Notes under the pieces: generated by a model | The model's input: only the letters and a program-made list of their open reading frames with translations | Told to the model about the DNA's origin: nothing | Database searches by the model: none | Assembly (NCBI GenBank): GCA_028717805.1 | Contig: JAQUNC010000004.1 | Coordinates: 5,549 to 69,548, forward strand | Length of the DNA: 64,000 nt | Direction of reading: 5' to 3' | From: Atribacterota bacterium | Lineage (GTDB): Bacteria; Atribacterota; Phoenicimicrobiia; Phoenicimicrobiales; Stramentimicrobiaceae | Shown: piece after piece, positions 16,646 to 59,217 of the stretch | Numbering within the stretch: position 1 is the first letter of the stretch | Layout: every line of letters begins with the position of its first letter | Position numbers and translations under genes: made by a program

Positions 16646-16789
16646 TTTTCACTCCAACCAAATTTTAAACTAATAGATTAATTTAGTCTTTCTATCTAGT
16701 GAATAAATTCACTATAACTATAATAATATACCACAACAATGCAACTAATAAAATAAATTATTCTTGTTAACCACAGTTATTATCTAACT

Positions 16790-17272
16790 AATAGAAAGAA
16801 TATTATTTTCTCCAGGGTATCATGAGATTGAATAATGGTGCATACTGCTGGCAATCGTATACATAACTTTCTCCTGGACCTCAGCTGCGGTTTTTCCGTC
16901 TTATATGTACTTTAATCCTCATACCTTGATCATAAAAATTCTAATATCTAGTCCTGATAGATATTATTGATCTATGAAATACTATATACTAACTATTTTC
17001 AGCTAAATTTTAAAATACCCAGATCCAAGGGATCAGCAAAAGAACCAAATTATCAATGGCGTATTCCAAATCCTTACTTCTACCAGCAACAACTCAATAT
17101 AATGTTCTTCCAATTTTACTGGAGTATGGGGAAGATAACCTCCTAAAAACGTTGGACCAGCATCAGCGGCTAAATAGTCTATATCTCACCTAAGTCCATA
17201 GCAAAATGAGTTCTTTTCAATTATATTTTCTCCCAGATTTCCGGTAGAGACTAGAACTGATGATTTCCTCAT
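16790..17272 (-). pseudogene. Possible decayed gene remnant (broken reading frames)
   Basis: The minus strand reads ATG(17272) MRKSSVLVSTGNLGENIIEKNSFCYGLR*. Shifted-frame fragments follow: DIDYLAADAGPTFLGGYLPHTPVKLEEHYIELL... and ...RKLCIRLPAVCTIIQSHDTLEKII. There is no intact ORF in a ~730-nt gap. Family not recognised. Confidence 0.25.
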
Positions 17273-17293
17273 TATCTCACCCCTTAATAATAT

Positions 17294-17330
17294 TACCAGG
17301 ATAGCCTTATTTATACTTGCTATCCTGGTA
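17294..17330 (-). terminator. Stem-loop downstream of the TRAP operon (12-bp perfect stem TACCAGGATAGC/GCTATCCTGGTA)
   Basis: A perfect inverted repeat lies 47 nt past the stop of the 132-aa ORF. On the minus strand it is followed by an A/U-rich tail (AUAUUAUUAA), a weak U-tract. Confidence 0.45.
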
Positions 17331-17376
17331 ATACGAATGTAGGTATTCTATTGAACGATCAATAGCTAACCTTAAT

Positions 17377-17775
17377 TTATTGTTTCTCCAAAACTTCCAA
17401 AGGTGTTGTCGCTCTTGAACCCTTATCCCCAATCGCTTCAATAGTGTACACTCCTGGTTTTAGCATGACTGTTGGGATACCACCTGCTGGTTTTAGTTTA
17501 AAAGCACCATATTCATTAACGGTAACAAATCCTCCGGTACCTACTTCAGCAAAGGCAAAAGGAACTCCATCTACTGTCATAATTACCTTTACTTTTTCTC
17601 CTGGAACAAACCCGGCACCATAAAAGGTTAACTTAGTTCCAGGTTCCCCATTTATGGGTGTTACCACAAGACTGGTTACCTTCTCTTCTACAGCACAAAC
17701 CATTCCAACAGAGATTATTGTCATAACCAAAACCAAAAAAATTAGAAGAACGCTTATTTTCATACGACATCTCAT
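17377..17775 (-). CDS. Small secreted/anchored beta-sandwich (Ig-like) protein, last gene of TRAP operon
   Basis: 132 aa. The N-terminal hydrophobic segment is followed by alternating beta-strand pattern (KLTFYGAGFVPGEKVKVIMTVDG...GVYTIEAIGDKG). Same strand as the upstream TAXI gene, 71 nt downstream of it. Confidence 0.6.
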   Translation of the reverse strand: MRCRMKISVLLIFLVLVMTIISVGMVCAVEEKVTSLVVTPINGEPGTKLTFYGAGFVPGEKVKVIMTVDGVPFAFAEVGTGGFVTVNEYGAFKLKPAGGIPTVMLKPGVYTIEAIGDKGSRATTPLEVLEKQ

Positions 17776-17846
17776 TTGTCATCACCTCCCGATTTATCTT
17801 TAAAAGCCATCCTCTCTAATTCTCAACTGGTTCTAACTGGTCAACA

Positions 17847-18869
17847 TTACTTTTTACTCTCTGGTGGAATAAAACGTTCCGGTACATCTATCCCGTTTTC
17901 CAAACAATACCTGTAAAGTCCTGCATGGATTGGTATTTCACCCCCTGGTGCTACTAACTTAAAATAGTCAGTAATAGGATCCCATCCCACTATTCCAGGA
18001 TATGCCGTCGCAACTTCATCAAAACCTTCGACATAAGCCTTTACAATTTCATAACCAACTTCTTCCGGTAAATTAGAGGAAGCCACTGCACCAACAACCT
18101 GTCCTTCTTCCATTATAGATGGATTATCCGAAAGTTCTAAGATACTGCCTGCCGGGGTTTCAAAGAAAAGGATATAGGGGTACTCTGCTCTTATCTTTTC
18201 TATATCATCTTCACCATAACCAATAGCTGCTAGAGGAGTTTTTAAATTTAATTCAATTAAAGAAGAATCTAAGGAAGTCAGTCCACTGGATTTTTGTAAT
18301 CCAACAATACGACCTTGACTAAATAAATTGATAGCATCACCCAGGGTTGCGGGCACTATATCAATCCCACTTCCGATAACTTCATCAAAGTTAATAAAGT
18401 TAGTCGTAGAAGATGCTCCAGGTATACCGGGAGAAAATTTTTTACCTCCTAAATCCTTAAAAGTTTTTATCCCGGAATCTGCTCTGATGTATAGTCTGTT
18501 AACAATAGCATTTCTCAAGAATAACCATCTTATTGGCTCCCATGCTTCCCCTTCAAAATTGCTAATTCCTCTATGTAATTGCATTGCAGAAGCAGAGTCA
18601 ACACACAAGGCAAAATCAAATGATCCTTCCCTGGTTCTTCTTAAATTATCCAAGGCGGCACCACTCTCAATAACTGTTGTAATTATGTTGTTATCTGCCT
18701 TATTGATAACCGAAGCAGTTCCAACACACCAGGCATATAATCCGGATGTTGAAGAGGTACTACCCATATTTAAATAGACAGTTTGGGCAGATACATTGCC
18801 TACTAGCACACTAAACGCCAGTATCAAGATAAGCACAAAAACCAATCCACTTAGTCTTCTGTTTTTCAT
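17847..18869 (-). CDS. TAXI-family TRAP transporter solute-binding protein (copy 2)
   Basis: 340 aa with a signal peptide, NMGSTSSTSGLYAWCVGTASVINK and the C-terminal IPIHAGLYRYCLENG typical of TAXI receptors. Confidence 0.85.
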   Translation of the reverse strand: MKNRRLSGLVFVLILILAFSVLVGNVSAQTVYLNMGSTSSTSGLYAWCVGTASVINKADNNIITTVIESGAALDNLRRTREGSFDFALCVDSASAMQLHRGISNFEGEAWEPIRWLFLRNAIVNRLYIRADSGIKTFKDLGGKKFSPGIPGASSTTNFINFDEVIGSGIDIVPATLGDAINLFSQGRIVGLQKSSGLTSLDSSLIELNLKTPLAAIGYGEDDIEKIRAEYPYILFFETPAGSILELSDNPSIMEEGQVVGAVASSNLPEEVGYEIVKAYVEGFDEVATAYPGIVGWDPITDYFKLVAPGGEIPIHAGLYRYCLENGIDVPERFIPPESKK

Positions 18870-18972
18870 TTTTACTCACCTCCTTTCTATTCTGTTTTTT
18901 CCCAAATATTATTTTGGTATTACCATAAAACATTGGTTAATGTTTGGTAATAACACACTATTTCTATTATCT

Positions 18973-20874
18973 TTACAACTTTACCAGTCCTAACCTTTTT
19001 ATAACATTATGTTGATAGAACAGCATTGGTATTACGATAGCCACACCAATGATGGATAAAATATGTTTAGGACACATCAGTAAAATTCCACTCCCAACGA
19101 ATACTAATCGAAATAAAACATTTAAATTACTTTTTACTCTCCCAAAAAACCCATATGCTAGTAGTATTGCACCAAAAAATGCGCTCCCTACATAAGTTGC
19201 TACTGAAATAGTATCACTGCGACCTACCAGAGAAGGATTAAGTACAAAAAAATAGGGAATAATGAAAGCAACAATACCCAGCCTGACTGATACTAAGGCA
19301 GTTTTAAACCAATTACCTTTAGCAATACCAGCAGCAACAATTGCCTGGGTACAGGTAGGAGGAGTTACTCCGCCTAAGATGGCCCAGTAAATAAAGAATA
19401 GATGCAAGGCTATCTGATCAACTCCCAGCCTTATTAGTGAAGGAGCAAGTATAGAAATAGACAATATATAAGTTGGTACTACTGGTAGAGAGGTTCCTAA
19501 AATAAAAGGGATAATAGTGGCTATTAATAATGCCAATAACAAATTATTTCCTCCAACCTCTAAGATTACAGAACTCAACTTGGGAGCAATACCGGTAATG
19601 CCAATCATATTAACCAGAATATTTACAGACACTAAAATTGGTACAATTTTACAAAGAGCTAATCCTCCTTCACTTAATCCATCCCTTATCTTTGTTAACG
19701 TATATTTTACTCCTTTTGGGGAAAGATCAGAAAGCAAGAAAATTACAATAACTGAAACGCAAGCATAAAATCCAGCAAAGATTAAGGCTCTACCTCTAGC
19801 AATAGAATATAGGAGTACTGCCATAGGAATAACTAAGGAGGCTATTCTATTAAATTTTAAAATACTTTGCCATTTGGGAATTTCATTCTCAGGTACTGCA
19901 GCTAAACCAGATCGTACTGTCTCAAAATGTACTCCAGCAAAGACTCCGGTATAATAGAGTAAACAAGGAATCAGGGCATAAGCTATAATTTTTAAATAGG
20001 GAAGACCCAAAAATTCTGCCATAATAAAAGCTGCCACACTCATAATAGGTGGAGTAATTCCTCCTCCTGTTGAAGCAATAGCTTCCACTCCAGCTGCAAA
20101 ATCAGGATTATAACCCAACCGTTTCATTAGCGGAATGGTGTAACTACCGGTAACTACCACATTAGCTACACCACTACCGGAGATACTCCCAAAAAGAGCA
20201 CTTGATACTACTGCTGTTTTGGCTGGCCCACCCCTGTATCTACCGGTTAATGCTAATGCAATATCAATAAAAGTCTTCCCTCCACCTGCTCCTGAAATGA
20301 GGGCACCAAATATGATAAACATAGCAATAAAAGTTGCTGACATCCCGGTGATACTTCCATAAATTCCTAGAGCAGAAAAATATACTGAATTAATAACAAA
20401 TTTCCAGGATAAACCCGGTAACCTCCATATTCCTGTCAATTTTGGACCAAGAGATATATAGAGAAATAACAATCCCACAAATATTGGTATTGCCCAACCT
20501 ACAGATCTTCGTGCTGCATCAAGTATAACTATTATTAAGAGAGAGCCAATGATTAAATCAAAAGTTGATGCACTTCCCGGAATCATATAAATTTTCATTG
20601 CCTTTAAAAATGTATTAACATTTGCTATTATTATTATGGTAATGACACATACATCCCAAAAGGAAATTTTTTTGTTTTCTTGATTTGATTTACCATAAGG
20701 ATAAGCCAGAGATGCAAGGGAAACTCCAAGAATAATATGAATTGCTCTCAACTGTAAATCTATTAGAGTTATAAAAATGGGAAGAATAAGCTGTGTAAGG
20801 GCAAAAATAATACCACCCCAGAATAGTACCTGGTTTCTATCCAAAATAGACCTCCCTTTATTTTGGATCGCCAT
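18973..20874 (-). CDS. TRAP transporter fused 4TM/12TM permease (TAXI type, copy 2)
   Basis: 633-aa polytopic protein. The block LFGSISGSGVANVVVTGSYTIPLMKRLGYNPDFAAGVEAIASTGGGITPP is paralogous to the 27194-29080 protein. Confidence 0.85.
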   Translation of the reverse strand: MAIQNKGRSILDRNQVLFWGGIIFALTQLILPIFITLIDLQLRAIHIILGVSLASLAYPYGKSNQENKKISFWDVCVITIIIIANVNTFLKAMKIYMIPGSASTFDLIIGSLLIIVILDAARRSVGWAIPIFVGLLFLYISLGPKLTGIWRLPGLSWKFVINSVYFSALGIYGSITGMSATFIAMFIIFGALISGAGGGKTFIDIALALTGRYRGGPAKTAVVSSALFGSISGSGVANVVVTGSYTIPLMKRLGYNPDFAAGVEAIASTGGGITPPIMSVAAFIMAEFLGLPYLKIIAYALIPCLLYYTGVFAGVHFETVRSGLAAVPENEIPKWQSILKFNRIASLVIPMAVLLYSIARGRALIFAGFYACVSVIVIFLLSDLSPKGVKYTLTKIRDGLSEGGLALCKIVPILVSVNILVNMIGITGIAPKLSSVILEVGGNNLLLALLIATIIPFILGTSLPVVPTYILSISILAPSLIRLGVDQIALHLFFIYWAILGGVTPPTCTQAIVAAGIAKGNWFKTALVSVRLGIVAFIIPYFFVLNPSLVGRSDTISVATYVGSAFFGAILLAYGFFGRVKSNLNVLFRLVFVGSGILLMCPKHILSIIGVAIVIPMLFYQHNVIKRLGLVKL

Positions 20875-20897
20875 ATTTTCTTACCTCTTATTTGTAT

Positions 20898-23800
20898 TTA
20901 TAGTTCTAATGGTACAAAATTTTTCTTCATAATACGAATGGCTTTTTCAGGGTCAATTCTTCCGTAAAGACCTCCGACGGTTGATAAAATATAAGAAGCG
21001 TCCAATAATACTTTATGGTTTGGTCTCAAAACGGTATATTCTTTCGGATTGAAAAGGGCTCCTTTTACAATCATCTTAAGATCTTCTATAAGATAATCTT
21101 TGTTTTCCTTACATTTATGATACACTGTTCCACCAACTATTACCAGTGTGCAATCCTGAGTAAAGAAATTGACTCCTTCTTGCAAGAAATAAACATCAGT
21201 TTCTTTGACATGCCCTACATTATTAGCAGTAGCTACTGCTAAAGTTTCCTTAGCCAGAACGCTTCTGATGAAGTTTTCCTCTTCTGTAGTGGGCATAATA
21301 TGGGGATTATCGTGAATCCACTTTAAATATTCCTTTAGCTTGATAAACCATTTTTGTTCTTTATAAACTAAAAATCGATCCATATGGTCACCATTCTCCT
21401 GAAAATCAGGATATTTCTGATTAAACAAATCGCTAATTTCCTTTTCTACTGAACCATTTTTAAATTTTTCCAGTTCCATTAAATTTTCTGCGTTATAAGC
21501 TAATCCATATTTACCTTCTACTCTCCGATAAGCCAGAGGGTAATTGGGAGTTTTTAGTATAGTTCTTTTAACTTTTTTCTTAGGATCATCCCAGGGATAA
21601 TGATACAAGGGATTGGAATGTACATTGGCAAAAAAGTCAGTAGTACAACCACCAATATCTAAAGCCACGATATTCCCGATCCCTTCTTCTTCACCATAAC
21701 CGCGAGCTAACAAATTAATTCCTAAGAAAGCTGCTCGGGGAGTTGGTATAAATTTTGTACTCATATACTCTTCTACCACATCAAATCCCTTGCCTCGGAT
21801 AACAACAGTCTGAAAGAGTTCTCTTATTGCTTCATTTACTACATCAATGTTATACCTGTTAACTTCGGGCATAATATTGCCAGTTGCCCTTACATCAATA
21901 TTGTGACTATGGAAAATATCCAGTATTTCCTCAGTAACATCTTCATTTCCAGCATAAATTATCGGTATTCCATATTTAGCATAGGTTGCTAATTTTGCAG
22001 TTTCAGCTAATATCTTAGCATTGTGTAATACAGTTTCTGTATCTCCACCTTCATTAACTCCACCACTTAAGAGAATAATTTCCGGGCCATCTTCTAAATA
22101 AATTGCTCGAGCTTCTTCTAAAGATAATTTTCCGTCATAACTATTGAGAAGTTTTGCCCCTGCGGTCAGAGCTGCAAGATCAGCAGCAAATCCACTCTCC
22201 CTTTCAGTAGAAGCAACAGTAACCATTTTTAAACCACCTTTTGCACTACTGCAGGGAAGTTTTATATCAAATTCATTCATCATCTTCCGTAAAGGTTCCC
22301 AGTTGCCTTCTTTCCTACATTTGTCAAGACACCCTAAACCATTCGCCAAACCTTCACGAATATCGTCAACTGTAGTTGGAACGTAACGTAAATCCACTGC
22401 ATCTGAATTGGTATTAAAGATAGCAATTTTGGTGTAAGTACTACCAAAATCTACCGCCAATATTTTTTTATCCCGCAAATCTTTTAATCCTAATTGGTCT
22501 CTAAATGATAAGAGGAGATGGTCTTCAACGATAGCATCCTTTGATTCTGCTACTATTGATAATTCATCAGTCTGGCTAACATCTTTATAGAAATACCAGG
22601 GGAATCGTTCTCTAACCTTATCAACTCTTTCAATTTCATCTTTTACCTTTTGCAGACAAAATTCATCAATGCGACAAGTTCCATCAATAATTTTAGTCTT
22701 ACACATTCCTGCTAACTCATAGCGTTTATCTATCACTGTTACCTGGGGTGCCTGGAATAAACCAACCTGTAACGCTAAATCCAGGTTATCAGCACTAATC
22801 AGGTCACATTGCCCAGATGGGTAATTCTTTTCATCAATTAAATCCAGTAACATTGTTTCATAGTTCTTTGCTCTATCAGCAACATTTTCCCTTTTGGCAG
22901 CTTCTCCAGGATTAACTGTATATTCAAAAAAGTTTTCTAAATTTATTTTACCTTCATATCCTCCCATTAAAGCTAAATGAAAGATATTATACATAGCTCC
23001 TTTCTTTAACTCTTCCTTCCGAGATATTACATCAGGAAGCTGCCAGATCTCAGGAAGAGGCGTGCGATAGTACTCTTCGACAGTCTGTTTGGTAATATCA
23101 CAGCTAGCAATAATGTCTTCTGCCTTAGCATCATGGTGCGCTTCACAGTAGCTAACCACATGGATAATATCGGGGTCCATAAACATCTGCCAGTAAGTGG
23201 TCATGGTAAGATGGCTTTTTGCCTTATCTAGATTGGGTGGAAAGCTGGAAAGGCCTCCTCGAGTTTCTTTAGTAATACTAAAATCAAAATGCCTGGTTAG
23301 TGGCTCAATTAGTTCAAAAGCTGCCTTCATTTTCCCTAAATCATATCTGGGATTTATTTCTGGAGGCAAATCAAACATTAATTGCATGACATAATTCTTT
23401 ATACCCATTTTTAGAGCAATAATTCCACATAGGATGTGGTCTGTAACATACATGTCATCTGAGCACCTTCGGAGTTGCCATTGATGGGGATCATTTATCT
23501 CCAGTGGTTTGTTTATAGAAGCCCACCAGCGCATGGTATTAAAATGTTCATTAATGCCATCCAGAATAGAAAGAGGGCCTCGTCCATCTAAACGGTTATA
23601 AAAGAATACAGGCACTGCTGGAAACGGCATATGTAAAGTTTCCTCAAATATCTTAGCTAATTCCACTAATTCATCGGTACCAGAGTATATTCTAATCATA
23701 GGGTAATTTCCACATTGAGTTGCCTCTTTTAACCTCCTTAAATCCTCTTTACTCCGAATTGGTGCACCGCCTTCTCCTTTACGATATTTCTCCGGATTTT

Positions 23801-24554
23801 CCTCTCCCCGAACAAATTTAGCCAGAAATGCCTGACTGGCCTGATCCGGAGCTAAAGAGACAATCTCCAGAGCTGCTGCTTCACTTATTTTTCTGGTTCC
23901 CTCTACTGTTGGTTCTATTGTTTCGGCAGCTGCACCAATATGAGCTCTGATGATTGGTCTATTTTCTAATTGACGTACCTGTTTTATCCTTTCTAATAAG
24001 TCATCAGACCATTTTATTTTCTCTCTGGCAACTCTTATTTTTTTCTGAGCAAAATATTCTAACTCATCCATTGTTACATAATCATCAACCACCATTTCGA
24101 AAAATCCCTGGAATTTTTCTTTATTTTTATATTCTTGAGCAATCTTTTCCAGATTAAAATGTCTATCTTCAGGAGGAGAAAATCTATCCTCCAGTATGCG
24201 TAAGCCAGTCATTGCTCTGACTAAATTAGCTGCGGGTCTTAATCCACCAAAACAATACCTTATTCCACTTTTTTCTGGCTGCAATCCATATTTATATACT
24301 TTTTCTATCAACTCTTCGATAATTTCATCAACATGCAAATCTCCCAGGCGATAACTAAAGGTGACCACTTCTGCTTTTGACTCTCTAATTTTATCTATCA
24401 ATTCATCAATAGATACAGCTGGTCCTAATTTAATGGCAATATAACCTATTCCTTTGCTCTCCAGCCACTCAGCAAATCTTTCTACCCCTAAGGTATGAAC
24501 ACAGGGGTCTATAGAACAGTTTAATACTCTTCTTTTTTTGTTCGATTTATCCAC
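20898..24554 (-). CDS. Single-chain fusion: B12-binding-like domain + glutamate-mutase-E-like middle region + GlmL/MutL-type ASKHA ATPase domain
   Basis: 1218 aa with a GTG start 8 nt after AAGGAGAG. Residues ~8-135 follow a Rossmann B12-domain pattern (RRVLNCSIDPCVHTLGVERFAEWLESKGIGYIAI...FSYRL...YCFGGL). Residues ~700-1218 carry GlmL-like ASKHA motifs (ILAVDFGSTYTKIAIF, ILLSGGVNEGGD, VALDIGGCTTDF, LVIVGGT). By eye only, the middle ~500 aa resembles the C-terminal half of GlmE (GGLSSFPP..., CEAHHDAKAEDII). Confidence 0.7.
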   Translation of the reverse strand: MDKSNKKRRVLNCSIDPCVHTLGVERFAEWLESKGIGYIAIKLGPAVSIDELIDKIRESKAEVVTFSYRLGDLHVDEIIEELIEKVYKYGLQPEKSGIRYCFGGLRPAANLVRAMTGLRILEDRFSPPEDRHFNLEKIAQEYKNKEKFQGFFEMVVDDYVTMDELEYFAQKKIRVAREKIKWSDDLLERIKQVRQLENRPIIRAHIGAAAETIEPTVEGTRKISEAAALEIVSLAPDQASQAFLAKFVRGEENPEKYRKGEGGAPIRSKEDLRRLKEATQCGNYPMIRIYSGTDELVELAKIFEETLHMPFPAVPVFFYNRLDGRGPLSILDGINEHFNTMRWWASINKPLEINDPHQWQLRRCSDDMYVTDHILCGIIALKMGIKNYVMQLMFDLPPEINPRYDLGKMKAAFELIEPLTRHFDFSITKETRGGLSSFPPNLDKAKSHLTMTTYWQMFMDPDIIHVVSYCEAHHDAKAEDIIASCDITKQTVEEYYRTPLPEIWQLPDVISRKEELKKGAMYNIFHLALMGGYEGKINLENFFEYTVNPGEAAKRENVADRAKNYETMLLDLIDEKNYPSGQCDLISADNLDLALQVGLFQAPQVTVIDKRYELAGMCKTKIIDGTCRIDEFCLQKVKDEIERVDKVRERFPWYFYKDVSQTDELSIVAESKDAIVEDHLLLSFRDQLGLKDLRDKKILAVDFGSTYTKIAIFNTNSDAVDLRYVPTTVDDIREGLANGLGCLDKCRKEGNWEPLRKMMNEFDIKLPCSSAKGGLKMVTVASTERESGFAADLAALTAGAKLLNSYDGKLSLEEARAIYLEDGPEIILLSGGVNEGGDTETVLHNAKILAETAKLATYAKYGIPIIYAGNEDVTEEILDIFHSHNIDVRATGNIMPEVNRYNIDVVNEAIRELFQTVVIRGKGFDVVEEYMSTKFIPTPRAAFLGINLLARGYGEEEGIGNIVALDIGGCTTDFFANVHSNPLYHYPWDDPKKKVKRTILKTPNYPLAYRRVEGKYGLAYNAENLMELEKFKNGSVEKEISDLFNQKYPDFQENGDHMDRFLVYKEQKWFIKLKEYLKWIHDNPHIMPTTEEENFIRSVLAKETLAVATANNVGHVKETDVYFLQEGVNFFTQDCTLVIVGGTVYHKCKENKDYLIEDLKMIVKGALFNPKEYTVLRPNHKVLLDASYILSTVGGLYGRIDPEKAIRIMKKNFVPLEL

Positions 24555-24588
24555 TTTTCAATCTCTCCTTTTCCAATATAGGGATATT

Positions 24589-25779
24589 TTATAAATTAAC
24601 AATCTGTTCTAAGTTGTTAAGACCATAATTTTGAGGAATTCTTGTTTCAGATATATCTCTCCCCTTCACATCACCATTGACTAAATATTCTTTTTTCATC
24701 CACTTACTGACTGTAATAATAACCTCATCAATGCTGGGAGTATCTACTTGTGCTAGTAAAGCAATTGCTTTAGAAACTATTAATCCAAAAGGTACATCCT
24801 CAGTGAGATAACGTGATTGAAAGTCTGGTTTATAATAACCATTTTCTAAATCTTTCATAGGCGCATATAAACCTTGATAAGCTTGATTGGTAATAAAACA
24901 GGCTTCTAAAGTATGGTCATCTATAATTGAATTTTTATAAGAAGATATGAGCCAATCCTCTAAGCTTAATACATTTGTCAAGTCTATATTTTTAAATCTA
25001 TTTTGAAGTTTCCTGGTTAAGGCAAGCATATCATTGCTCATATTGGCAAGTGTTTTAGCAATATTACTGGTTACTCCATGATAAAAGAGGGGAATGTCTT
25101 CTTTTTTATATTTTCTATTTTCATTTCCTTTGAAAAGTCCATACATAATTCCGGGGTGCACAATCTGACCGATATTAGCTAAAGTAAGGGTCAACATATT
25201 AGGGATGGGCTCCACTTTAATATTTAGTAAATGAGTAAATATTTCTGATAATTCTAAAGTAGCTTCCCGGGGCAGGGCTGCTAATCCTACTATGTCTTTT
25301 TTTCCCAAAATATCCACTTTGCTGGCATATTCTCTGGTTCGACAAGCCCAGGGAAGCGTTTGTAAACCAAAAAATTTAATTTTTTTATCAGTAACACTCT
25401 TTAAAACTTTCAATAAAGAATATTCAAAACCACCTCTGGCCGGTATTGATCCTATAATTACTTCATTCTTTAAAAAAGGGATTATTTGCAATAGAACCGA
25501 TTCTTGAGCAAATGCTGGCAGAGGCAAAAGTATCAAATCAGCATCCTGGCATACTTCTTCTGGAAATCTACTTACTTTATCTGGTCTCCCATATAATTCT
25601 TCTTTGCCTTGTACTGCAGTGATAACTCTGCTTTCATCAATTATCCTTTGAAAAATATCAACTTTATGCTGATAACGAAAAAAAAGATTAATTTGACAAT
25701 TAAAATTACTTTTGATAATTGGAATCATGGCATGAGCTGCATTCCCGCTTCCACAAATAGTAATGGTCTTAATACTCAT
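24589..25779 (-). CDS. NAD(P)-dependent octopine/nopaline (opine) dehydrogenase family protein
   Basis: 396 aa. The N-terminal dinucleotide fold ITICGSGNAAHA and the LQTLPWACRT segment are typical of opine dehydrogenases. First gene of the second operon. Confidence 0.75.
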   Translation of the reverse strand: MSIKTITICGSGNAAHAMIPIIKSNFNCQINLFFRYQHKVDIFQRIIDESRVITAVQGKEELYGRPDKVSRFPEEVCQDADLILLPLPAFAQESVLLQIIPFLKNEVIIGSIPARGGFEYSLLKVLKSVTDKKIKFFGLQTLPWACRTREYASKVDILGKKDIVGLAALPREATLELSEIFTHLLNIKVEPIPNMLTLTLANIGQIVHPGIMYGLFKGNENRKYKKEDIPLFYHGVTSNIAKTLANMSNDMLALTRKLQNRFKNIDLTNVLSLEDWLISSYKNSIIDDHTLEACFITNQAYQGLYAPMKDLENGYYKPDFQSRYLTEDVPFGLIVSKAIALLAQVDTPSIDEVIITVSKWMKKEYLVNGDVKGRDISETRIPQNYGLNNLEQIVNL

Positions 25780-25863
25780 TTATATACTCCTTAAAATAGC
25801 TATTAATTTATTATTTTTATATTTTTAATAATCTTAATTTTATCTATATAAAGATTAATATAC

Positions 25864-25878
25864 GGTATACTGTATACC
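25864..25878. promoter_or_regulatory. Palindromic operator GGTATAC-T-GTATACC (candidate GntR/FCD site), copy A
   Basis: Perfect 7-1-7 inverted repeat lying 8 nt downstream of a consensus -10 box on the minus strand. It shares the 13-nt core GTATACTGTATAC with 30293-30313. Confidence 0.6.
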
Positions 25879-25886
25879 ATTAAATA

Positions 25887-25915
25887 ATTATAATAATATT
25901 TCTTTTTTCAGTCAA
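25887..25915 (-). promoter_or_regulatory. Sigma-70-type promoter of the opine-DH/mutase-like/TRAP operon
   Basis: The minus strand reads TTGACT (25915-25910), a 17-nt spacer, then TATAAT (25892-25887). Confidence 0.6.
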
Positions 25916-26104
25916 ATTACTCGTTACAACCAAGGAAACTCAATTGTTTATTATAAAAAAATAGTTTGCCCAGAACATCTTCTTCTTTTCTTAATCAATA
26001 ATAGTGTTTATATTAGTATTAGCCATTTTTTATGTTGTCATTGGACATTCTGAACCAAAATCTTCCTTTTAACCAATTTTATTGCTCCCACTAACCACTA
26101 TTTT

Positions 26105-27154
26105 CTAAATTTTTAATTGATTGATTCCTTTTTTTATTAATTCTCTCAAAACATCTACAAACGATTCATGAACACTCGCTGGTAATCCATCAGCACCTGG
26201 TTCAGTATAACCATTAATTCCGTCAATAAAACCAGCATCAGCTGCCTTTTGTAATATCCTTTTCTCTATCTCGCTATTATGAAAAATATCAACGTCATTC
26301 TTTAATAAAGCAATTCCTGCTGCCAATCCATATGCTCCCCAGTTTGATATTACTGCTGTAATTAAATAGTTAGTCTTTGTTGACGGTGCTATTCCTGCTT
26401 GACAAGGACATTTGCACTTATTACCGAAGGGAAGATTTTTTCTGATTTCCTCCTGAATACAGCCCATTCCAATCTCATTTCCTCCATCTCCTATACCTAT
26501 AGTGGTAATATTATTTTTTAGCGCTTCCTGAACCAGATAATCTATTTTTGCCATATACTTACTTGAATCGACTCCTCTGCTGGTATGAATTATTTCTTTT
26601 TTATTCATACCTCCTTTTTCAATAGTGATTACTGCTTTGGGATGGTATTTCCTGATAAGATCAGTAGCTTTCTTTAACGCTATTTCCTTTTCGATAGGAA
26701 ATGAAAGAACTGAAGCTGAATTGATAGGAGCATGATACGCTGGTGTTTCTATTGCTTGGGAAGGTGACAACACTTTTAATCCTGCTGCATTGACCACTGT
26801 AGTCATTCCCTGAACCAGATTCTCTTCAATAAAAATGATAGGTATGGCATGATAGGCTCTATTAATAGCCCGGGCTAAAGATGCTGCACCAGGTGGACCA
26901 TCAGTTTCAGCAATGTCAGGCGTTATCTCTGGCCTATCAGGCCAGCCTGTAGCTATAAAGATAATATCTCCCTTAGTTATAATTTTATCTAATTCCTGAC
27001 TTGCTAGCATAATTAAAGGATATTCTGCCTTATTTCTTGCCCATTGATATAATAAATGGATTACTCCTCTCCCTGGTATATCTAGATTAACTAAACGATC
27101 AATTCTATCAAATATTTCCACCAATTTTTCTTTACTCTTTACAAATGAACTCAT
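26105..27154 (-). CDS. DUF4392 family protein (D-glutamate cyclase-like C-terminal domain family)
   Basis: 349 aa. The stretch IATGWPDRPEITPDIAETDGPPGAASLARAI is the family hallmark as I recall it. Last gene of the first TRAP operon. Confidence 0.7.
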   Translation of the reverse strand: MSSFVKSKEKLVEIFDRIDRLVNLDIPGRGVIHLLYQWARNKAEYPLIMLASQELDKIITKGDIIFIATGWPDRPEITPDIAETDGPPGAASLARAINRAYHAIPIIFIEENLVQGMTTVVNAAGLKVLSPSQAIETPAYHAPINSASVLSFPIEKEIALKKATDLIRKYHPKAVITIEKGGMNKKEIIHTSRGVDSSKYMAKIDYLVQEALKNNITTIGIGDGGNEIGMGCIQEEIRKNLPFGNKCKCPCQAGIAPSTKTNYLITAVISNWGAYGLAAGIALLKNDVDIFHNSEIEKRILQKAADAGFIDGINGYTEPGADGLPASVHESFVDVLRELIKKGINQLKI

Positions 27155-27193
27155 TTGATATTCTCCAATAAATTAAATTTAAATCTGATTTTA

Positions 27194-29080
27194 TTACGCC
27201 TCTACTTCAGAAAACTGTCTAACTTCTTCTCTTTTTTTAATTCTTTGATAGAAATAGACTAAAATCAATAATATCATTCCTCCTAGGCCTATTTTAAAAT
27301 TGGGAAAGATAAGAAGAATAGCAGCAATTATTAATATAATTCTCTCCAATAGATTAATCCGGGTTAGGAAATAACCCATCAAAGCAATAGCCAGGGCAAA
27401 TATTCCGATTAAAGCTGTACTAAAGGTTCTTAAAATATGAGATGCTGTCCCTATGAAAAGAATTGAATAGTCATTAACAAATACATAGGGAATAATAAAT
27501 CCTGGCAAAGCCATCATAATGGCATAGTAAGCAGTCTTTAACCAATTAGATTGGGCTATTCCTGATGCTACATAAACAGATAAACAAACAGGTGGTGTAA
27601 TGGTACCCAAAATAGCAAAATAAAAGACAAACATATGTGCTGCTAAAGGAAGTAAGCCCAACTCAATTAAAGCTGGACAGGCAACAATTGCAGCAATGAT
27701 ATAAGCAACTGCGGTAGGTAGACCCATTCCCAGAATAATACTTCCTACCATTGCTAATAATAGAGCATAAAAAGTATTACCTCCACTCATAGCTAAAATG
27801 ACTGTAGTCATTTTAATTCCTAAACCAGTCATTGAGACAATTCCCAATACTATCCCAGCACAAGCGCAGGCAATCGCCACTCCTATGGTATTTTTTGCTC
27901 CATATTCCAGTGCTTTCAAAAATACTTTGGGATTCTTTCTAATCTCCTGATTAACAAAACTTATAACAACTGTTGAGATAACCCCATAGAACGCGGCTCT
28001 CGTAGGTGAAAATCCCTGAACTATATAATAAATAATTACAATTAGAGGTATTATTAAATGTCCATTTCTTAAAAAAACTTTTTTCAAATTTATAGATGAC
28101 TTTTCCATCTTAAACCCCATCAACAGGGTACGAAACCTTACACATAAAAATACACTGGCAAAATATAATATAGCCGGTATAGCAGCCGCCTTACATATCG
28201 CAAAATATCTCATTCCCAGCATTTCAGCCATAATAAAAGCTCCCGCGCCCATAACCGGTGGCATAATTTGCCCCCCGGTTGAAGCAACAGCTTCTACTGC
28301 ACCAGCAAATTCTGGTTTATATCCTGAGCTTTTCATAAGTGGGATAGTAAATGAACCCGTGGTAGCAACGTTAGCAGTTGAGCTACCACTAATAGTACCA
28401 AATAAAGCACTACTAATAACAGCAACCTGAGCTCTTCCGCCTATCATTCTACCAGCAATGGCTTGTGAAAAATCCATAAAAAATTCCCCTACTCCTGCCT
28501 CGCTTAAGAATTGGCCAAAAATAACAAACATTACTACAGTAGTAGCGGAAACCCCTAATGGTATGCTCCAGATTCCATCTGAAGTAAGATAGAGAAAACC
28601 AAATATTCTTTCTATACTTAATCCTCGGTGTCCCCATATCCCCGGGATGTAACCACCAAAGCGGGCATATAAAATAAAGATGATTGCCAGAATCGGTAAT
28701 GCCATACCTATTGCTCTGCGACATGCTTCTAGAATCAATATAACAACCATGATGCCTATTAAATACTGAACACCAATAGATAATCCGCTCTGCATGGAAA
28801 TACTGATATAGTTTACAAATATATAGATGCAACTTAACATACCTAAAATGGTAAAAATTATATCTATCAGGCTAGCTTTTTTCTTATTCCAAGGATGTAA
28901 TAAAAAAATCATAGAAAAAACAAACATTAAGTGAACAGACCGTTGTACAAATACATCATATGGTATGGTACCGGCAGTATATAGGTGAAAAATTGACATT
29001 AATATAGCCATTAGCTGTGTATACCTATTTATTGGTAAACTTAGCTTATTATTTTTTTCTTCTCCATTATATTCTGTCAT
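27194..29080 (-). CDS. TRAP transporter fused 4TM/12TM permease (TAXI type, copy 1)
   Basis: 628-aa polytopic protein with LFGTISGSSTANVATTGSFTIPLMKSSGYKPEFAGAVEAVASTGGQIMPP. Confidence 0.85.
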   Translation of the reverse strand: MTEYNGEEKNNKLSLPINRYTQLMAILMSIFHLYTAGTIPYDVFVQRSVHLMFVFSMIFLLHPWNKKKASLIDIIFTILGMLSCIYIFVNYISISMQSGLSIGVQYLIGIMVVILILEACRRAIGMALPILAIIFILYARFGGYIPGIWGHRGLSIERIFGFLYLTSDGIWSIPLGVSATTVVMFVIFGQFLSEAGVGEFFMDFSQAIAGRMIGGRAQVAVISSALFGTISGSSTANVATTGSFTIPLMKSSGYKPEFAGAVEAVASTGGQIMPPVMGAGAFIMAEMLGMRYFAICKAAAIPAILYFASVFLCVRFRTLLMGFKMEKSSINLKKVFLRNGHLIIPLIVIIYYIVQGFSPTRAAFYGVISTVVISFVNQEIRKNPKVFLKALEYGAKNTIGVAIACACAGIVLGIVSMTGLGIKMTTVILAMSGGNTFYALLLAMVGSIILGMGLPTAVAYIIAAIVACPALIELGLLPLAAHMFVFYFAILGTITPPVCLSVYVASGIAQSNWLKTAYYAIMMALPGFIIPYVFVNDYSILFIGTASHILRTFSTALIGIFALAIALMGYFLTRINLLERIILIIAAILLIFPNFKIGLGGMILLILVYFYQRIKKREEVRQFSEVEA

Positions 29081-29130
29081 ATCTTCCTGCTTTCTTTAAA
29101 TGATACGATAATACAACAATTATGATTATT

Positions 29131-29163
29131 ATCAGTCCCCCTATTTTTGATAGGGGGACTGAT
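29131..29163 (-). promoter_or_regulatory. Intercistronic stem-loop (14-bp perfect stem) between TAXI receptor and permease genes
   Basis: ATCAGTCCCCCTAT / ttttg / ATAGGGGGACTGAT. It is GC-rich relative to its surroundings and has no clear U-tract on the minus strand. Confidence 0.5.
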
Positions 29164-29191
29164 AATCCCTACTAATCCTTAATAAGCTGGT

Positions 29192-30160
29192 TTATGGAGT
29201 TAATTCTGTCGGTATTTGAACACCATTTTCGGTATAATATTTAATTGCACCAGGATGATAAGGAACGGTAGAATCCAGGACCTTATCCAAGCCCATATCT
29301 GCAGCGCCCGGATGTGCAGCTAACATAAGATCCTTATGCTCATATAATCCCTTGGTAATCTCATATATAACATCGTCCGGTAAACCTTCTCGACACATTA
29401 ATAATGCCCATGTTCCTACTACCTGAACATTCTCTGAGCCTTCATAATAATCGCCAGCAGGAAAGCTTACCTTGCTAAGGAAAGGTAATTTTTCACGAAT
29501 TTTAGTAACATCCTCATCACTGAATTCAATAACTCGAACCGGTTTTCTTACCGAATATTCCATCCAGGTAGGATTAGAACCACCCTGCCAGTGAGAATCA
29601 ATTGTTCCTGATCTCATCATCTCTGCAGCTTCTGTATGTCGGTAATATGATGGAATGATATTGATATTGATGGCTTCAAATAAAGTTGTAGCAGTCGACT
29701 CAGCAGATGAACCCTTAGGCTGAAGATTAACCCTTTTCCCTTCTAGATCCCAGATAGTTTTAATTGGATTATCTTCATTAACAATAAGGTTCCAATATAG
29801 AATATGAATAGGTGCGATAGTTAAAAGAGGGGTCCCTTGTCCTGCAAAAGCTCCTTCCTGTAAATATACTTCTCGAGCAGTGTCATGAGATACAATACCC
29901 AAATCACCAAATCCTGCATATAATCTTTTAGCATTATCAATATATCCTGGAGTTGCTTCCATTGTTACTCTAGCATCAGGCAATACTACACCAATGACTC
30001 TTGCTACACCCGAAGAATACTGGAAACCAATACCACCAATAACCGAAGACATCACTAATAAATCATATTGTTGGGCAGAACATACCGATACAAACAGAAT
30101 ACTGATCATCAAAACTGCAATTATTAAAATACTGGCTGTTATTTTTAACCTATTAGTCAT
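29192..30160 (-). CDS. TAXI-family TRAP transporter solute-binding protein (copy 1)
   Basis: 322 aa with a signal peptide, GGIGFQYSSGVARVI and the C-terminal VPYHPGAIKYYTENG typical of TAXI receptors. Confidence 0.85.
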   Translation of the reverse strand: MTNRLKITASILIIAVLMISILFVSVCSAQQYDLLVMSSVIGGIGFQYSSGVARVIGVVLPDARVTMEATPGYIDNAKRLYAGFGDLGIVSHDTAREVYLQEGAFAGQGTPLLTIAPIHILYWNLIVNEDNPIKTIWDLEGKRVNLQPKGSSAESTATTLFEAININIIPSYYRHTEAAEMMRSGTIDSHWQGGSNPTWMEYSVRKPVRVIEFSDEDVTKIREKLPFLSKVSFPAGDYYEGSENVQVVGTWALLMCREGLPDDVIYEITKGLYEHKDLMLAAHPGAADMGLDKVLDSTVPYHPGAIKYYTENGVQIPTELTP

Positions 30161-30292
30161 TTTTTCACCTCCTTTCTTATTATTTTTTAATGATTTTATT
30201 AGTTGGAATTTTTAGGAATATATTTAGATTCAAAAAGAATTTTTAGATATAGAAAATATTAAGACAAGTGGTTATTTGATTTAATTTTTATT

Positions 30293-30313
30293 TATAGTAT
30301 ACTGTATACTATA
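30293..30313. promoter_or_regulatory. Palindromic operator TATAGTATAC-T-GTATACTATA (candidate GntR/FCD site), copy B
   Basis: Perfect 10-1-10 inverted repeat centred 143 nt upstream of the TAXI copy-1 start codon. It lies between the GntR gene and the operon. Confidence 0.6.
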
Positions 30314-30522
30314 TTTATATATTAGAATTATTATATAATACAAATGGGAAAAGTAAAATATTTTTTAAAAATTTTCTATTTTATTAGGATTCTAGAAATT
30401 TTAGGTTGGTAGAATATTTATTTAATAAAGAAAAGATTTAATTTATTGATTGATTTCTGAAGTAAATTTTATAAAGTAATCTGTTGTATTTTAATAATTA
30501 TATCAATTTGGTTACTCTTCAT

Positions 30523-31245
30523 TCATGAAGAACTTTCTCTCAATTCAAACTCTTTAATAAGAGATTCTTTTCCATTAATAATATGCTCTCTCATTAAATT
30601 TTCTGCTAATATCGCATCTTTCTCAATAATTGCCTTGACTATCTTCTTATGTTCCTCAATTGATTTTTTTTGTCTATCTGCTTTAGATATAATTTCTGAA
30701 AACCGTTCTCTGGACTTTTTATATAAATTATCTATGATATTGATTAATTCTTTACTTCTACTACATTCCTCTATTATATTATGAAATTTTAGATTTAAAT
30801 TGGCAATGTTCCTTAAAGATCCTTCCTTTAAAAAAAGCTCGCTCTCAGTAATGATTTCTTCTAATTGCCTTATCTCCATTTTGGTTATATAATTATTATC
30901 TATTGCTTTTCTAACCGCTAATCCTCTTAATACACTACTTATATCATAAAACTCATTCAATGCTTCTTTGGTAGGAAGAGGAGCAACTCTTACCCCTTTG
31001 GGTGGAGAAGATACGACTAAACCTTTCTGCTCTAACTCGATAATTGCTTCCCTTATTGGTGTTCGGCTTACTTTCATTAGTTTAGCTAATTTTGATTCTA
31101 CCAATCGCTGGCCAGGCTTTAATTCCCCTCGGAAAATAGCTTTACTTAAAATTGAATATACTTTATCACTAGTAACGGTCTTAACACTTAAATCAATTTC
31201 CGAATTCTGTTTTAAAAAATTATCTAAAGAATCGTTTTTCAACAT
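30523..31245 (-). CDS. GntR-family transcriptional regulator, FadR/FCD subfamily
   Basis: 240 aa. The N-terminal wHTH is KPGQRLVESKLAKLMKVSRTPIREAIIELEQKGLV. The C-terminus is an all-helical FCD-like domain ending EEHKKIVKAIIEKDAILAENLMREHI. Confidence 0.85.
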   Translation of the reverse strand: MLKNDSLDNFLKQNSEIDLSVKTVTSDKVYSILSKAIFRGELKPGQRLVESKLAKLMKVSRTPIREAIIELEQKGLVVSSPPKGVRVAPLPTKEALNEFYDISSVLRGLAVRKAIDNNYITKMEIRQLEEIITESELFLKEGSLRNIANLNLKFHNIIEECSRSKELINIIDNLYKKSRERFSEIISKADRQKKSIEEHKKIVKAIIEKDAILAENLMREHIINGKESLIKEFELRESSS

Positions 31246-59075: not shown

Positions 59076-59217
59076 TCAGATAAAAAGTGAGGTAAACAAT
59101 ATTCGATTTTCTCTAAACTAACATAACTTAAACAAAAAGTCAAAAATATTTTATTTAACTATTACCGATTTCTAAAAGGTTTTTAAGACTGCATAAATAC
59201 CACTTTTAAAGGTTTGA

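Follow-up and report, generated by a model that had tools for sequence, protein, structure and literature searches.

A putative B12 isomerase paired with an opine-type dehydrogenase: a probable new pathway for the degradation of a glutamate-like compound in uncultured anaerobes

Glutamate mutase, as represented by the C. cochlearium enzyme (1cb7) and the E. coli O157 cluster (ECs_0762-0764), combines a B12-binding module (GlmS), a catalytic barrel (GlmE) and an accessory ATPase (GlmL), and is accompanied by methylaspartate ammonia-lyase and mesaconase. Lysine 5,6- and ornithine 4,5-aminomutases are TIM-barrel isomerases that depend on adenosylcobalamin (AdoCbl) and pyridoxal phosphate (PLP), and the logic of a mutase step followed by a dehydrogenase step is well established in lysine and ornithine fermentation. 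Opine dehydrogenases, such as the Pecten octopine dehydrogenase (3c7a), Arthrobacter CENDH (1bg6) and CntM of the Cnt metallophore loci, make or oxidise a D-configured carbon. Here, we analyze a nine-gene locus in a 64-kb stretch of an Atribacterota genome (referred to as the window), in which an opine-type dehydrogenase gene precedes a gene for a 1218-aa fusion protein that resembles GlmS, GlmE and GlmL joined in one chain. A related gene pair in Halothermothrix orenii, Hore_09740/Hore_09750, was remarked upon in a 2009 genome paper as a "putative operon" of octopine dehydrogenase and B12-binding protein that is common to other thermophilic anaerobes and has no known role (PMC2626281).

The locus resembles each of these systems in part. 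It appears to have the same three modules as glutamate mutase and keeps the equivalent of GlmE residue E329, and canonical glutamate mutase clusters share a GntR regulator and the DUF1446 and DUF4387 genes with the loci described here, some of which also have an adenosyltransferase gene nearby. However, the modules are contained in a single 1218-aa chain that begins with the B12 domain, the barrel is only ~17% identical to GlmE, and the partner is an opine dehydrogenase rather than methylaspartate ammonia-lyase and mesaconase. The TIM-barrel AdoCbl isomerase fold, the proposed order of isomerization followed by NAD-dependent oxidation and the presence of GlmL-related accessory proteins are features in common with the lysine and ornithine aminomutases, but those enzymes use PLP, for which Pfam detects no domain here, and their dehydrogenases belong to other families. 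The dehydrogenase is homologous over its full length to opine dehydrogenases and CntM, with the catalytic residues retained, and family-5 importers are found nearby as in Cnt loci. In contrast to described opine and Cnt systems, it is paired with a B12 isomerase, there is no CntL, and Arg and Gln replace the residues corresponding to Gln118 and Glu142 of octopine dehydrogenase. The Hore_09740/Hore_09750 pair and its relatives in thermophilic anaerobes belong to the same B12-barrel family (30-42% identity), have the same gene order and share the dehydrogenase residues H208, R323, D328 and R115, but lack GlmL, importers and a repressor and have housekeeping and cell-wall neighbors. We conclude that the locus has an enzyme core from a known superfamily that forms an uncharacterized, strongly conserved and widespread variant, and is neither an artefact nor an explained pathway. 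The pairing of opine dehydrogenase with B12 isomerase probably marks an undescribed route for the breakdown of a glutamate-like compound in uncultured anaerobes.

All nine open reading frames (ORFs) are on the minus strand, exactly at the coordinates given in an earlier note on this DNA, and its domain calls (GntR-FCD, TAXI, TRAP, DUF4392 and opine-dehydrogenase-like) were borne out by Pfam and NCBIfam searches, the check that it had proposed. The genes and the domains of the fusion are as follows.

30523..31245, minus: GntR-family regulator with FCD effector domain (PF00392 E 5.5e-18, PF07729 E 3.9e-18)
29192..30160, minus: TAXI-A solute receptor with signal peptide (TIGR02122, 178.8 bits vs cutoff 84.35)
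27194..29080, minus: fused TRAP permease A of DctQ-DctM type (TIGR02123, 634.2 bits vs cutoff 320.65)
26105..27154, minus: PF14336 protein, formerly DUF4392 and now named "D-glutamate cyclase-like, C-terminal" (PF14336 E 1.9e-69)
24589..25779, minus: NAD(P) oxidoreductase of the Octopine_DH/opine dehydrogenase family (PF02317 E 1.2e-32)
20898..24554, minus: 1218-aa fusion protein, whole gene
24180..24554, minus: fusion residues 1-125, predicted GlmS-like B12-binding Rossmann domain (family profile against PDB B12 domains)
22575..24002, minus: fusion residues ~185-660, GlmE-like TIM barrel, predicted catalytic domain (AlphaFold, Foldseek and hhalign)
20898..22463, minus: fusion residues 698-1218, GlmL/MutL-type ATPase of ASKHA fold, putative reactivase (PF13941 E 5.4e-86)
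18973..20874, minus: fused TRAP permease B (TIGR02123, 531.6 bits vs cutoff 320.65)
17847..18869, minus: TAXI-B solute receptor with signal peptide (TIGR02122, 92.1 bits vs cutoff 84.35)
17377..17775, minus: small 132-aa protein, secreted or membrane-anchored, with an N-terminal signal or transmembrane helix (no Pfam family)

Scanning a single genome from each GTDB species yielded relatives of the fusion in 158 stretches, the best 80 of which were retained. We called ORFs in the retained loci (designated by L numbers) and compared them with the window proteins, counting over the 58 loci with enough flanking sequence or the 35 with at least 6 kb on both sides. Among the best 80 of the 158 stretches, full-length fusion identity ranges from 55% to 98%, with the L001 protein being 98% identical. 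The carriers are mostly metagenome-assembled genomes of Chloroflexota (Anaerolineae and Caldilineae), Atribacterota and Bacillota, and a few are labeled Thermotogae, Bipolaricaulota, Spirochaetales, Ignavibacteriales, Aerophobetes, Armatimonadota, Acidobacteriota or Vecturithrix. An opine dehydrogenase homolog is directly adjacent to the fusion gene in at least 49 of the 58 loci, spanning more than ten phyla, and several of the nine misses are artefacts of the greedy ORF map. The homolog is present in 33 of the 35 loci with longer flanks. In one lineage, represented by protein P0057 (L086:4337-9310, recovered on three contigs from two sequencing runs), the opine dehydrogenase and the B12, GlmE and GlmL parts form a single 1657-aa polypeptide, whose gene is followed by genes for a peptidase C26 and a class-IV aminotransferase.

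The conserved unit is the pair of opine dehydrogenase and fusion genes, and the rest of the neighborhood is variable. Importers and GntR or RpiR regulators accompany the pair in nearly all loci, and the regulator may be of the GntR-FCD, GntR-UTRA or RpiR-SIS type. A Dpp/Opp-type ABC importer with a family-5 binding protein is found in ~26 of 35 loci. TAXI-B and TRAP-B occur with the pair in Atribacterota and Vecturithrix only; permease B is co-located with the fusion in L001, L002, L004, L006, L007, L008, L014 and L015. Accessory enzymes include a C45/AAT hydrolase (17/35 loci), peptidase C26 (7/35), MTTB-family proteins (6/35) and Amidohydro_3 (4/35), and single loci add an SDF glutamate/dicarboxylate-type symporter and a glutamine-synthetase-like gene. 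The earlier note would have taken a neighborhood conserved in no other genome as refuting its reading. The reading survives this check, as the neighborhood is conserved in part. The pair is widely kept, but DUF4392 is present in only six other loci, TAXI-B has the narrow distribution just given, and the TAXI-A operon is confined to one species.

Three observations concern the loci themselves. The MTTB-family (trimethylamine-methyltransferase-like) genes lie inside Dpp-type importer operons of Chloroflexota and Spirochaetales in L019, L030, L037, L045 and L089 (L089:7284-8741). Amidohydro_3 follows two permease genes in L016, L024 and L029 and sits in the importer cluster in L021. L002, labeled Actinomycetota, and L005, labeled Promethearchaeota, are short contigs whose fusions are 92% and 82% identical to the Atribacterota protein; these are probably mis-binned Atribacterota contigs and not cross-phylum or cross-domain occurrences.

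The division of the 1218-aa protein into B12-binding, GlmE-like and GlmL-like parts, as proposed in the earlier note, agrees with profile searches, the AlphaFold and Foldseek results and the PF13941 match. The GlmL/MutL part (residues 698-1212) scores 289.6 bits against PF13941 (cutoff 27, E 5.4e-86), but only slightly exceeds the cutoff of TIGR01319 (206.7 vs 204.05 bits) and remains below that of the equivalog NF040745 (279 vs 475 bits). It is 28% identical to E. coli GlmL (E 1e-37), and the nucleotide-binding motifs of the ASKHA (actin/sugar-kinase) fold, DFGST..K (702-709) and D966-GG-TTD973, are invariant in the family alignment. These scores place it within the GlmL/MutL family, though not as a glutamate mutase GlmL equivalog; no Fe-S domain was detected in this part. 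For the N-terminal domain, a profile built from 60 family sequences detects solved B12 domains (4jgi at E 3.6e-7, as well as 2yxb, 7xcn, methionine synthase and GlmS), and H20-x-x-G23, S67..L70 and G103-G104 are conserved family-wide. The middle ~500 residues produced no sequence match by Pfam (E up to 10), phmmer against PDB or family profiles against PDB, and were identified as a GlmE-like barrel from a predicted structure and from alignment of profiles. The AlphaFold model, which covers residues 1-700 (pLDDT 91), has the glutamate mutase epsilon chains 6h9e_B and 1cb7_B as its best Foldseek matches (E 3e-13, target TM 0.66-0.67), followed by ornithine 4,5- and lysine 5,6-aminomutases (E 6e-10 to 1e-8) and then methylmalonyl-CoA mutase. 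With the E. coli O157 glutamate mutase cluster as a reference, we also constructed a profile of GlmE, to which hhalign aligned the barrel at E 9e-5 to 1.2e-4; in Viterbi-only mode, just the C-terminal half was aligned.

We then compared the barrel with GlmE at the positions that we take to bind L-glutamate, which are three arginines and Glu171 in C. cochlearium numbering, or R67, R99, R148 and E170 of E. coli GlmE. In a provisional mapping by hhalign, which is consistent with the barrel strand order of the AlphaFold model, R99 corresponds to Q241, R148 to Y290 and E170 to a proline (312 or 315), while the equivalent of R67 is ambiguous (H205, or R203 two positions before it). GlmE E329, which presumably contacts the adenosyl ribose, aligns with the near-invariant E471 of the fusion. 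The family has its own set of invariant polar residues, consisting of R203, Y290, D323, R325, E352, N354, R362, D366 and R432. The barrel does not match PF06368 (Met_asp_mut_E) when residues 1-700 are searched at E up to 10, nor the NCBIfam model for methylaspartate mutase E. In addition, tblastn with E. coli methylaspartase detected no homolog in the window and 91 loci (~1.6 Mb), which extends to the related loci the absence of methylaspartate ammonia-lyase already remarked on for the window. Because the Arg/Arg/Glu positions appear to be replaced (provisional mapping) and methylaspartase is missing, the fusion is judged not to be a canonical glutamate mutase. A CobA/BtuR corrinoid adenosyltransferase gene directly follows the fusion gene in L020, L022, L024 and L029, and therefore points to adenosylcobalamin as the probable cofactor and to radical chemistry rather than methyl transfer. 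In NCBI annotation, the family carries the name "glutamate mutase L".

The dehydrogenase partner aligns over residues 4-394 with residues 4-395 of Pecten octopine dehydrogenase (3c7a, E 3e-63), and has no NCBIfam match. The catalytic residues of the Pecten enzyme, which we take to be H212, R324 and D329, correspond to H208, R323 and D328 of the window dehydrogenase, and all three are conserved in 71-72 of 72 partner dehydrogenases aligned across all clades. These shared residues indicate that the two-enzyme unit is ancient and probably performs the same chemistry throughout. Two pocket positions differ. R115, present in 71 of the 72 partners, replaces Gln118 of octopine dehydrogenase, which we assume lies in the keto-acid pocket, and Q140 occupies the position of Glu142. 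The substrate may also be a primary amine.

When 1.84 billion representatives were searched with the barrel, only 303 relatives reached E ≤1e-3, and many of these are proteins of 540-630 aa that combine a B12 domain and barrel but lack the GlmL part; 8 of the 40 GlmL-less relatives in the alignment match PF06368 (GlmE) weakly. They occur in cultured anaerobes (Halothermothrix orenii, Caldanaerobacter, Thermoanaerobacter, Tepidanaerobacter, Caminicella, Anoxybacter and Rosettibacter), where they are annotated as "cobalamin B12-binding domain-containing protein" or erroneously as "methionine synthase". In all four cultured-organism contexts, an Octopine_DH gene is immediately upstream of the GlmL-less relative, often overlapping it. 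The neighbors there encode a penicillin-binding protein, LytR, asparagine-synthase-type amidotransferases (2/4) and an ATP-grasp ligase, with no importers or repressor nearby. Two further GlmL-less relatives, P0127 and P0139, have additional domains, one a C-terminal ATP-grasp (glutathione-synthetase/RimK-like) domain and the other a peptidase M15 domain; these fusions are a hint that some of the family may be involved in the chemistry of peptides or D-amino acids.

We found no functional study of the pair in the literature, in which the 2009 H. orenii remark was the sole relevant item; a paper on ethanol in Thermoanaerobacter mentions octopine dehydrogenase solely as a stress-induced gene. 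The suggestion that no pathway can be named for these enzymes thus stands, since searches of families and literature revealed no characterized pathway, but the combination itself had already been flagged in H. orenii. Adjacency in at least 49 of 58 loci, the P0057 fusion, the partner gene in 4/4 GlmL-less contexts and the shared dehydrogenase residues together make it likely that the AdoCbl isomerase works with the opine dehydrogenase.

The two operons of the locus appear to be controlled by a single regulator. The exact 13-mer GTATACAGTATAC of the putative GntR operator (GGTATACAGTATACC) occurs only twice in the 64-kb window. With up to two mismatches there are 6 matches compared to 1.2 expected, and none of 100 shuffles attains 6.

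30297..30309, minus: operator 1, GTATACAGTATAC, core of the palindrome AGTATAC-A-GTATACT, ahead of TAXI-A
25865..25877, minus: operator 2, GTATACAGTATAC inside GGTATAC-A-GTATACC, ahead of the opine dehydrogenase

Each copy sits just 3' of the best -10 box of its own intergenic region. Operator 1 is downstream of the promoter-like sequence TTTACT-16-TATAAT (30357..30330), and operator 2, which is overlapped by a degenerate copy at 25858-25870, is downstream of TTGACT-17-TATAAT (25915..25887). The motif (GTATACNGTATAC) also precedes the dehydrogenase gene in six Atribacterota loci (L001, L002, L003, L006, L009 and L014) and is also ahead of the first operon in L001, L003 and L009. GntR orthologs with 66-85% identity flank the pair in L002, L003, L006 and L014. 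The two-operon layout with a shared palindromic operator, which had been read from the window alone, is therefore well supported by conservation in related Atribacterota loci. A winged helix-turn-helix domain with an FCD domain and putative inverted-repeat operators after both -10 boxes fit the profile of the GntR/FadR subfamily, and the GntR-FCD protein is presumed to repress both operons. An Rfam scan of the locus detected no cobalamin riboswitch and no other RNA element.

The importers differ in their conservation. TAXI-A is closest to the solved TAXI proteins 8s4j (E 6.6e-25) and 1us4 (E 6e-22), and the best PDB match of TAXI-B is also 1us4 (E 2e-19). Permeases A and B are 37% identical and the two receptors 27% identical, in agreement with their earlier description as clear paralogs and highly divergent proteins, respectively. 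The TAXI-A/TRAP-A/DUF4392 genes are found between regulator and dehydrogenase in this species only (the window, L001 and L081-L083). At this position in L003 and L009, genes for a family-5 solute-binding protein (SBP5), two permeases, two ATPases and a peptidase C26 follow the same operator instead. There is nothing directly upstream of the dehydrogenase gene in L002, L006 and L014, and in L002 and L014 it thus adjoins the regulator gene. DUF4392 is found in the window and six other loci, with the order GntR-DUF4392-dehydrogenase-fusion in L013, L019, L022, L024 and L029 (the L029 dehydrogenase is only a fragment); in L020, it is beside a divergently oriented GntR gene ~3 kb from the dehydrogenase. 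A two-domain mammalian DUF4392 protein is a D-glutamate cyclase (PMC5339696), and the DUF4392 protein TON_0340, whose structures the window protein matches at E 5e-27, is a Mn-dependent phosphatase in vitro (PMC5132392). From this arrangement we infer that operon 1 may be an exchangeable feeder slot comprising an importer and an amide- or lactam-opening enzyme, with DUF4392 as the proposed feeder enzyme. The swap in L003 and L009 makes one direct importer plus an exchangeable feeder slot a better reading of the twin importers than the two related substrates suggested in the earlier note.

Downstream of the small gene, the window has lost genes that are present in its relatives. The 731-bp gap at 16646-17376 is a deletion scar containing remnants of two genes.

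17048..17275, minus: DUF1446/AtuA remnant, residues 1-81 of 463 (tblastn with the L001 protein, 60% identity, E 9e-19)
16812..16937, minus: DUF4387 remnant, residues 65-106 of 108 (tblastn, 81% identity, E 5e-19)

In L001, whose nucleotide sequence is ~94% identical across the shared locus, the small gene is followed (17271-20374) by genes identified with Pfam as DUF1446/AtuA (463 aa), MmgE/PrpD (494 aa) and DUF4387 (108 aa), and then by an SBP5 gene. The MmgE/PrpD gene is wholly gone from the window, and ~2.7 kb are missing. The trio also follows the small gene in L006, and AtuA and PrpD are found in L015. The absence of accompanying enzymes from the window therefore needs qualification: there is indeed no methylaspartase, but sister strains carry downstream AtuA, PrpD and DUF4387 genes that were lost here by deletion. 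In the canonical glutamate mutase cluster of E. coli O157, too, the methylaspartase gene is closely followed by DUF1446 and DUF4387 genes (ECs_0759/ECs_0760, L085:934-2618), whose products are 31-33% identical to the Atribacterota counterparts. DUF1446 has been noted in the E. coli glutamate mutase cluster and in Dictyoglomus (PMC4682846), and we found no function for DUF1446 or DUF4387 in the literature. The recurrence of both families with GlmE-type mutases suggests related downstream chemistry on branched C5 dicarboxylates.

Our preferred interpretation is a GntR-repressed, two-promoter regulon for the uptake and breakdown of an acidic amino compound through a radical isomerase and an opine-type dehydrogenase, and we consider it evenly balanced between right and wrong. 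In this scheme, TAXI-B/TRAP-B would import the core substrate directly and the isomerase would carry out a radical 1,2-rearrangement of the glutamate mutase type. The dehydrogenase would then oxidise the C-N bond of the rearranged product, yielding a 2-oxo acid and ammonia or an amine for central metabolism. The built-in GlmL-type ATPase would swap out damaged cofactor, and the operon-1 slot would deliver the same intermediate from a precursor. With import, rearrangement and C-N oxidation arranged in this way, two enzymes would be enough as a core. Operators after both promoters, and importers and regulators in nearly all loci, argue for a catabolic, inducible system; a catabolic direction in which the isomerase acts first is, taken by itself, about an even call.

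The nature of the substrate is suggested by the neighboring genes. Hints of the glutamate family are provided by peptidase C26, Amidohydro_3, class-IV aminotransferase, the SDF transporter, the D-glutamate-cyclase-like domain and DUF1446 with DUF4387. Characterized members of the accessory families release or handle glutamate, and in several cases D-glutamate: they include gamma-glutamyl hydrolase, N-acyl-D-amino-acid deacylase, D-amino-acid transaminase, D-glutamate-cyclase-like proteins and glutamate-type transporters. A D-amino-acid substrate would also fit, because opine dehydrogenases act on D-configured carbon. Based on these accessory families and the replaced L-glutamate-binding residues, our best guess is a non-canonical compound, most likely D-glutamate or an N- or gamma-substituted derivative and not L-glutamate bound in the canonical manner. 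The context thus supports the earlier proposal of a glutamate-family or N-carboxyalkyl amino acid as still the most plausible class, though we rate the chance that the substrate belongs to the glutamate family at somewhat below even. More tentatively, and with a lower probability again, the fusion and its GlmL-less relatives could represent a new substrate class of AdoCbl isomerases, such as a D-glutamate mutase or an N-substituted-glutamate/opine mutase. They would then serve an undescribed two-enzyme pathway that ferments D-amino-acid- or gamma-glutamyl-rich necromass (peptidoglycan or poly-gamma-glutamate fragments) in uncultured anaerobes of the Atribacterota, Anaerolineae, Bacillota, Bipolaricaulota, Thermotogae and others.

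Several points weigh against the regulon model. The pathway logic is incomplete, because a single dehydrogenase step on glutamate would need no mutase if its product were 2-oxoglutarate. The accessory enzymes are heterogeneous and, with MTTB, C45/AAT and RpiR-SIS regulators among the neighbors, not all of them point to glutamate. The precedents for DUF4392 conflict, one being a D-glutamate cyclase and the other a phosphatase, and the GlmL-less pairs in housekeeping and cell-wall contexts without importers could mean biosynthesis. Having lost three downstream genes, the window strain itself may have an incomplete pathway. Within the fusion, the B12 domain is below the Pfam threshold (21.5 bits vs cutoff 32.1, E 2e-4) and the place of the Asp in the DxHxxG motif varies, the sequence being DPCVH in the window and DCVH in the consensus. 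The residue mapping onto GlmE is provisional because hhalign probability is just 55-59%. Finally, the model is assembled from sequence, structure prediction and gene context, and the substrate is deduced from these.

We next weighed other explanations of the same data. Under strict opine catabolism, an imported N-(carboxyalkyl) amino acid would be cleaved oxidatively by the dehydrogenase into an amino acid and a keto acid, with the B12 enzyme isomerizing either the opine or a cleavage product. The full-length match to octopine dehydrogenase with its catalytic His, Arg and Asp residues is as expected for such a pathway, and Arg115 in place of Gln118, in what we take to be the keto-acid pocket, would suit a dicarboxylic keto-acid moiety. 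The family-5 ABC importers in ~26 of 35 loci belong to the class that includes staphylopine and nickel receptors, and the sister strains carry a gene of the MmgE/PrpD family, which includes iminodisuccinate epimerase. However, the C26, C45 and Amidohydro_3 hydrolases cleave amides and not secondary amines, the GlmL-less pairs of cultured bacteria have no importers, and we know of no opine pathway that requires a B12 isomerase. We therefore regard this explanation as unlikely.

A second possibility is that the enzymes resemble those of lysine and ornithine fermentation, with an aminomutase shifting an amino group and the dehydrogenase deaminating the product oxidatively in the manner of 3,5-diaminohexanoate or 2,4-diaminopentanoate dehydrogenase. 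Ornithine 4,5- and lysine 5,6-aminomutases are the second and third fold matches of the barrel, and GlmL-related proteins accompany ornithine degradation (NF040744 match, E 7.5e-49). GlmE is the better structural match, though, and Pfam detects no PLP-related domain. In KamE, the PLP lysine is presumably ~11 residues after the cobalt-binding His, and a rough check of the family alignment shows no conserved Lys at this position (K34 is not conserved). On this evidence an aminomutase pair is quite improbable, and the regulon model with a GlmE-type isomerase is preferred.

Alternatively, the pair could be biosynthetic and make a modified amino acid, such as a building block for peptides or the cell wall or a metal chelator of the opine type, with the importers recovering the product or its metal complex. 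The GlmL-less pairs adjoin penicillin-binding protein, LytR, amidotransferase (2/4) and ATP-grasp ligase genes, relatives are fused to ATP-grasp or peptidase M15 domains, and the combination of SBP5 importer and opine dehydrogenase is reminiscent of Cnt staphylopine systems. The fused-clade pair is instead embedded in importer operons together with substrate-type repressors and hydrolases, the locus has no nicotianamine-synthase-like (CntL) gene, and the dehydrogenase is far closer to octopine dehydrogenase than to any CntM model. A biosynthetic role for the module is accordingly very unlikely. A Cnt-type metallophore system in particular was rejected, as a nicotianamine-synthase domain is absent from all nine locus proteins and the only CntA-like match, the orphan SBP5 described below, scores 58 bits vs a cutoff of 800.

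The fusion could also be an L-glutamate mutase of the canonical kind that forms 3-methylaspartate, with the dehydrogenase replacing methylaspartase to give 3-methyloxaloacetate and then 2-oxobutyrate. GlmE as the best fold match, the GlmL domain, the NCBI name "glutamate mutase L", the glutamate-related context and the DUF1446 and DUF4387 genes in common with the E. coli cluster can be cited for this pathway. We nevertheless rejected it as highly improbable: the barrel matches neither Met_asp_mut_E nor an NCBIfam equivalog, the R99, R148 and E170 equivalents are Gln, Tyr and Pro (provisional mapping, with R67 ambiguous), and there is no methylaspartase in the 1.6 Mb of loci. The judgment of the earlier note that the locus matches neither the methylaspartate pathway nor opine-metallophore clusters is thus upheld, and PLP-dependent aminomutases are only the second-best fold match. 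Finally, a corrinoid methyl-transfer system, in which the B12 domain would carry methyl groups for MTTB methyltransferases and the GlmL-like part would be a reductive activase, draws on the MTTB-family genes in importer operons of 6/35 loci and was rejected as extremely unlikely, given a barrel that is GlmE-like and not a methyltransferase, an accompanying cofactor gene for an adenosyltransferase, no Fe-S domain in the GlmL part, and no MTTB gene in the window or most other loci.

Since few substrate classes of AdoCbl-dependent isomerase are known, the discovery of another would be a genuine advance in radical enzymology. The pairing of an opine-type dehydrogenase with a B12 isomerase has no described precedent in pathways, and the fusion family maintains at least 55% identity over ~1,200 residues in more than ten phyla and at least 158 GTDB species. 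The family is found above all in abundant uncultured anaerobes that live in sediments and digesters, environments in which little is understood of what becomes of D-amino acids and cell-wall debris. The GlmL-less versions in cultured Halothermothrix, Thermoanaerobacter and Caldanaerobacter make the question open to direct bench testing, and the comparative data correct the public labels "glutamate mutase L" for the fusion and "methionine synthase" for the shorter relatives.

The remaining features of the locus and its surroundings are less directly connected with the enzyme pair. Orthologs of the small 132-aa protein, described as Ig-like in the earlier note, come after TAXI-B in five Atribacterota loci (73-89% identity), and a single-sequence AlphaFold model of low confidence (pLDDT 57) consists only of an N-terminal helix and beta strands. 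The locus is flanked by unrelated genes, SufC/SufBD on one side and an orphan SBP5 gene and a GH77 enzyme gene on the other. The SBP5 gene directly follows the locus.

14780..16645, minus: orphan family-5 solute-binding protein, SBP5 (PF00496 E 6.7e-53)

There are no permease or ATPase genes adjacent to it in the window. In other phyla, the core pair is usually accompanied by a family-5 ABC importer, so this protein may be associated with the locus, either as a relic or as an additional receptor. Elsewhere, the window encodes ion transporters, FeoB, an aldehyde:ferredoxin oxidoreductase and a TPR protein, none of which is pathway-related. A lysine riboswitch (RF00168, 110.7 bits, E 1e-28) is found at 58889-59076 on the minus strand, upstream of a gene of the NhaC-type Na+/H+-antiporter family (56981-58648), and the transporter is presumably lysine-controlled. 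Two genes downstream of this transporter, at 53254-55410 on the minus strand and unrelated to the locus, is the gene for the aldehyde:ferredoxin oxidoreductase, which is of the tungsten type and contains AFOR_N and AFOR_C domains.

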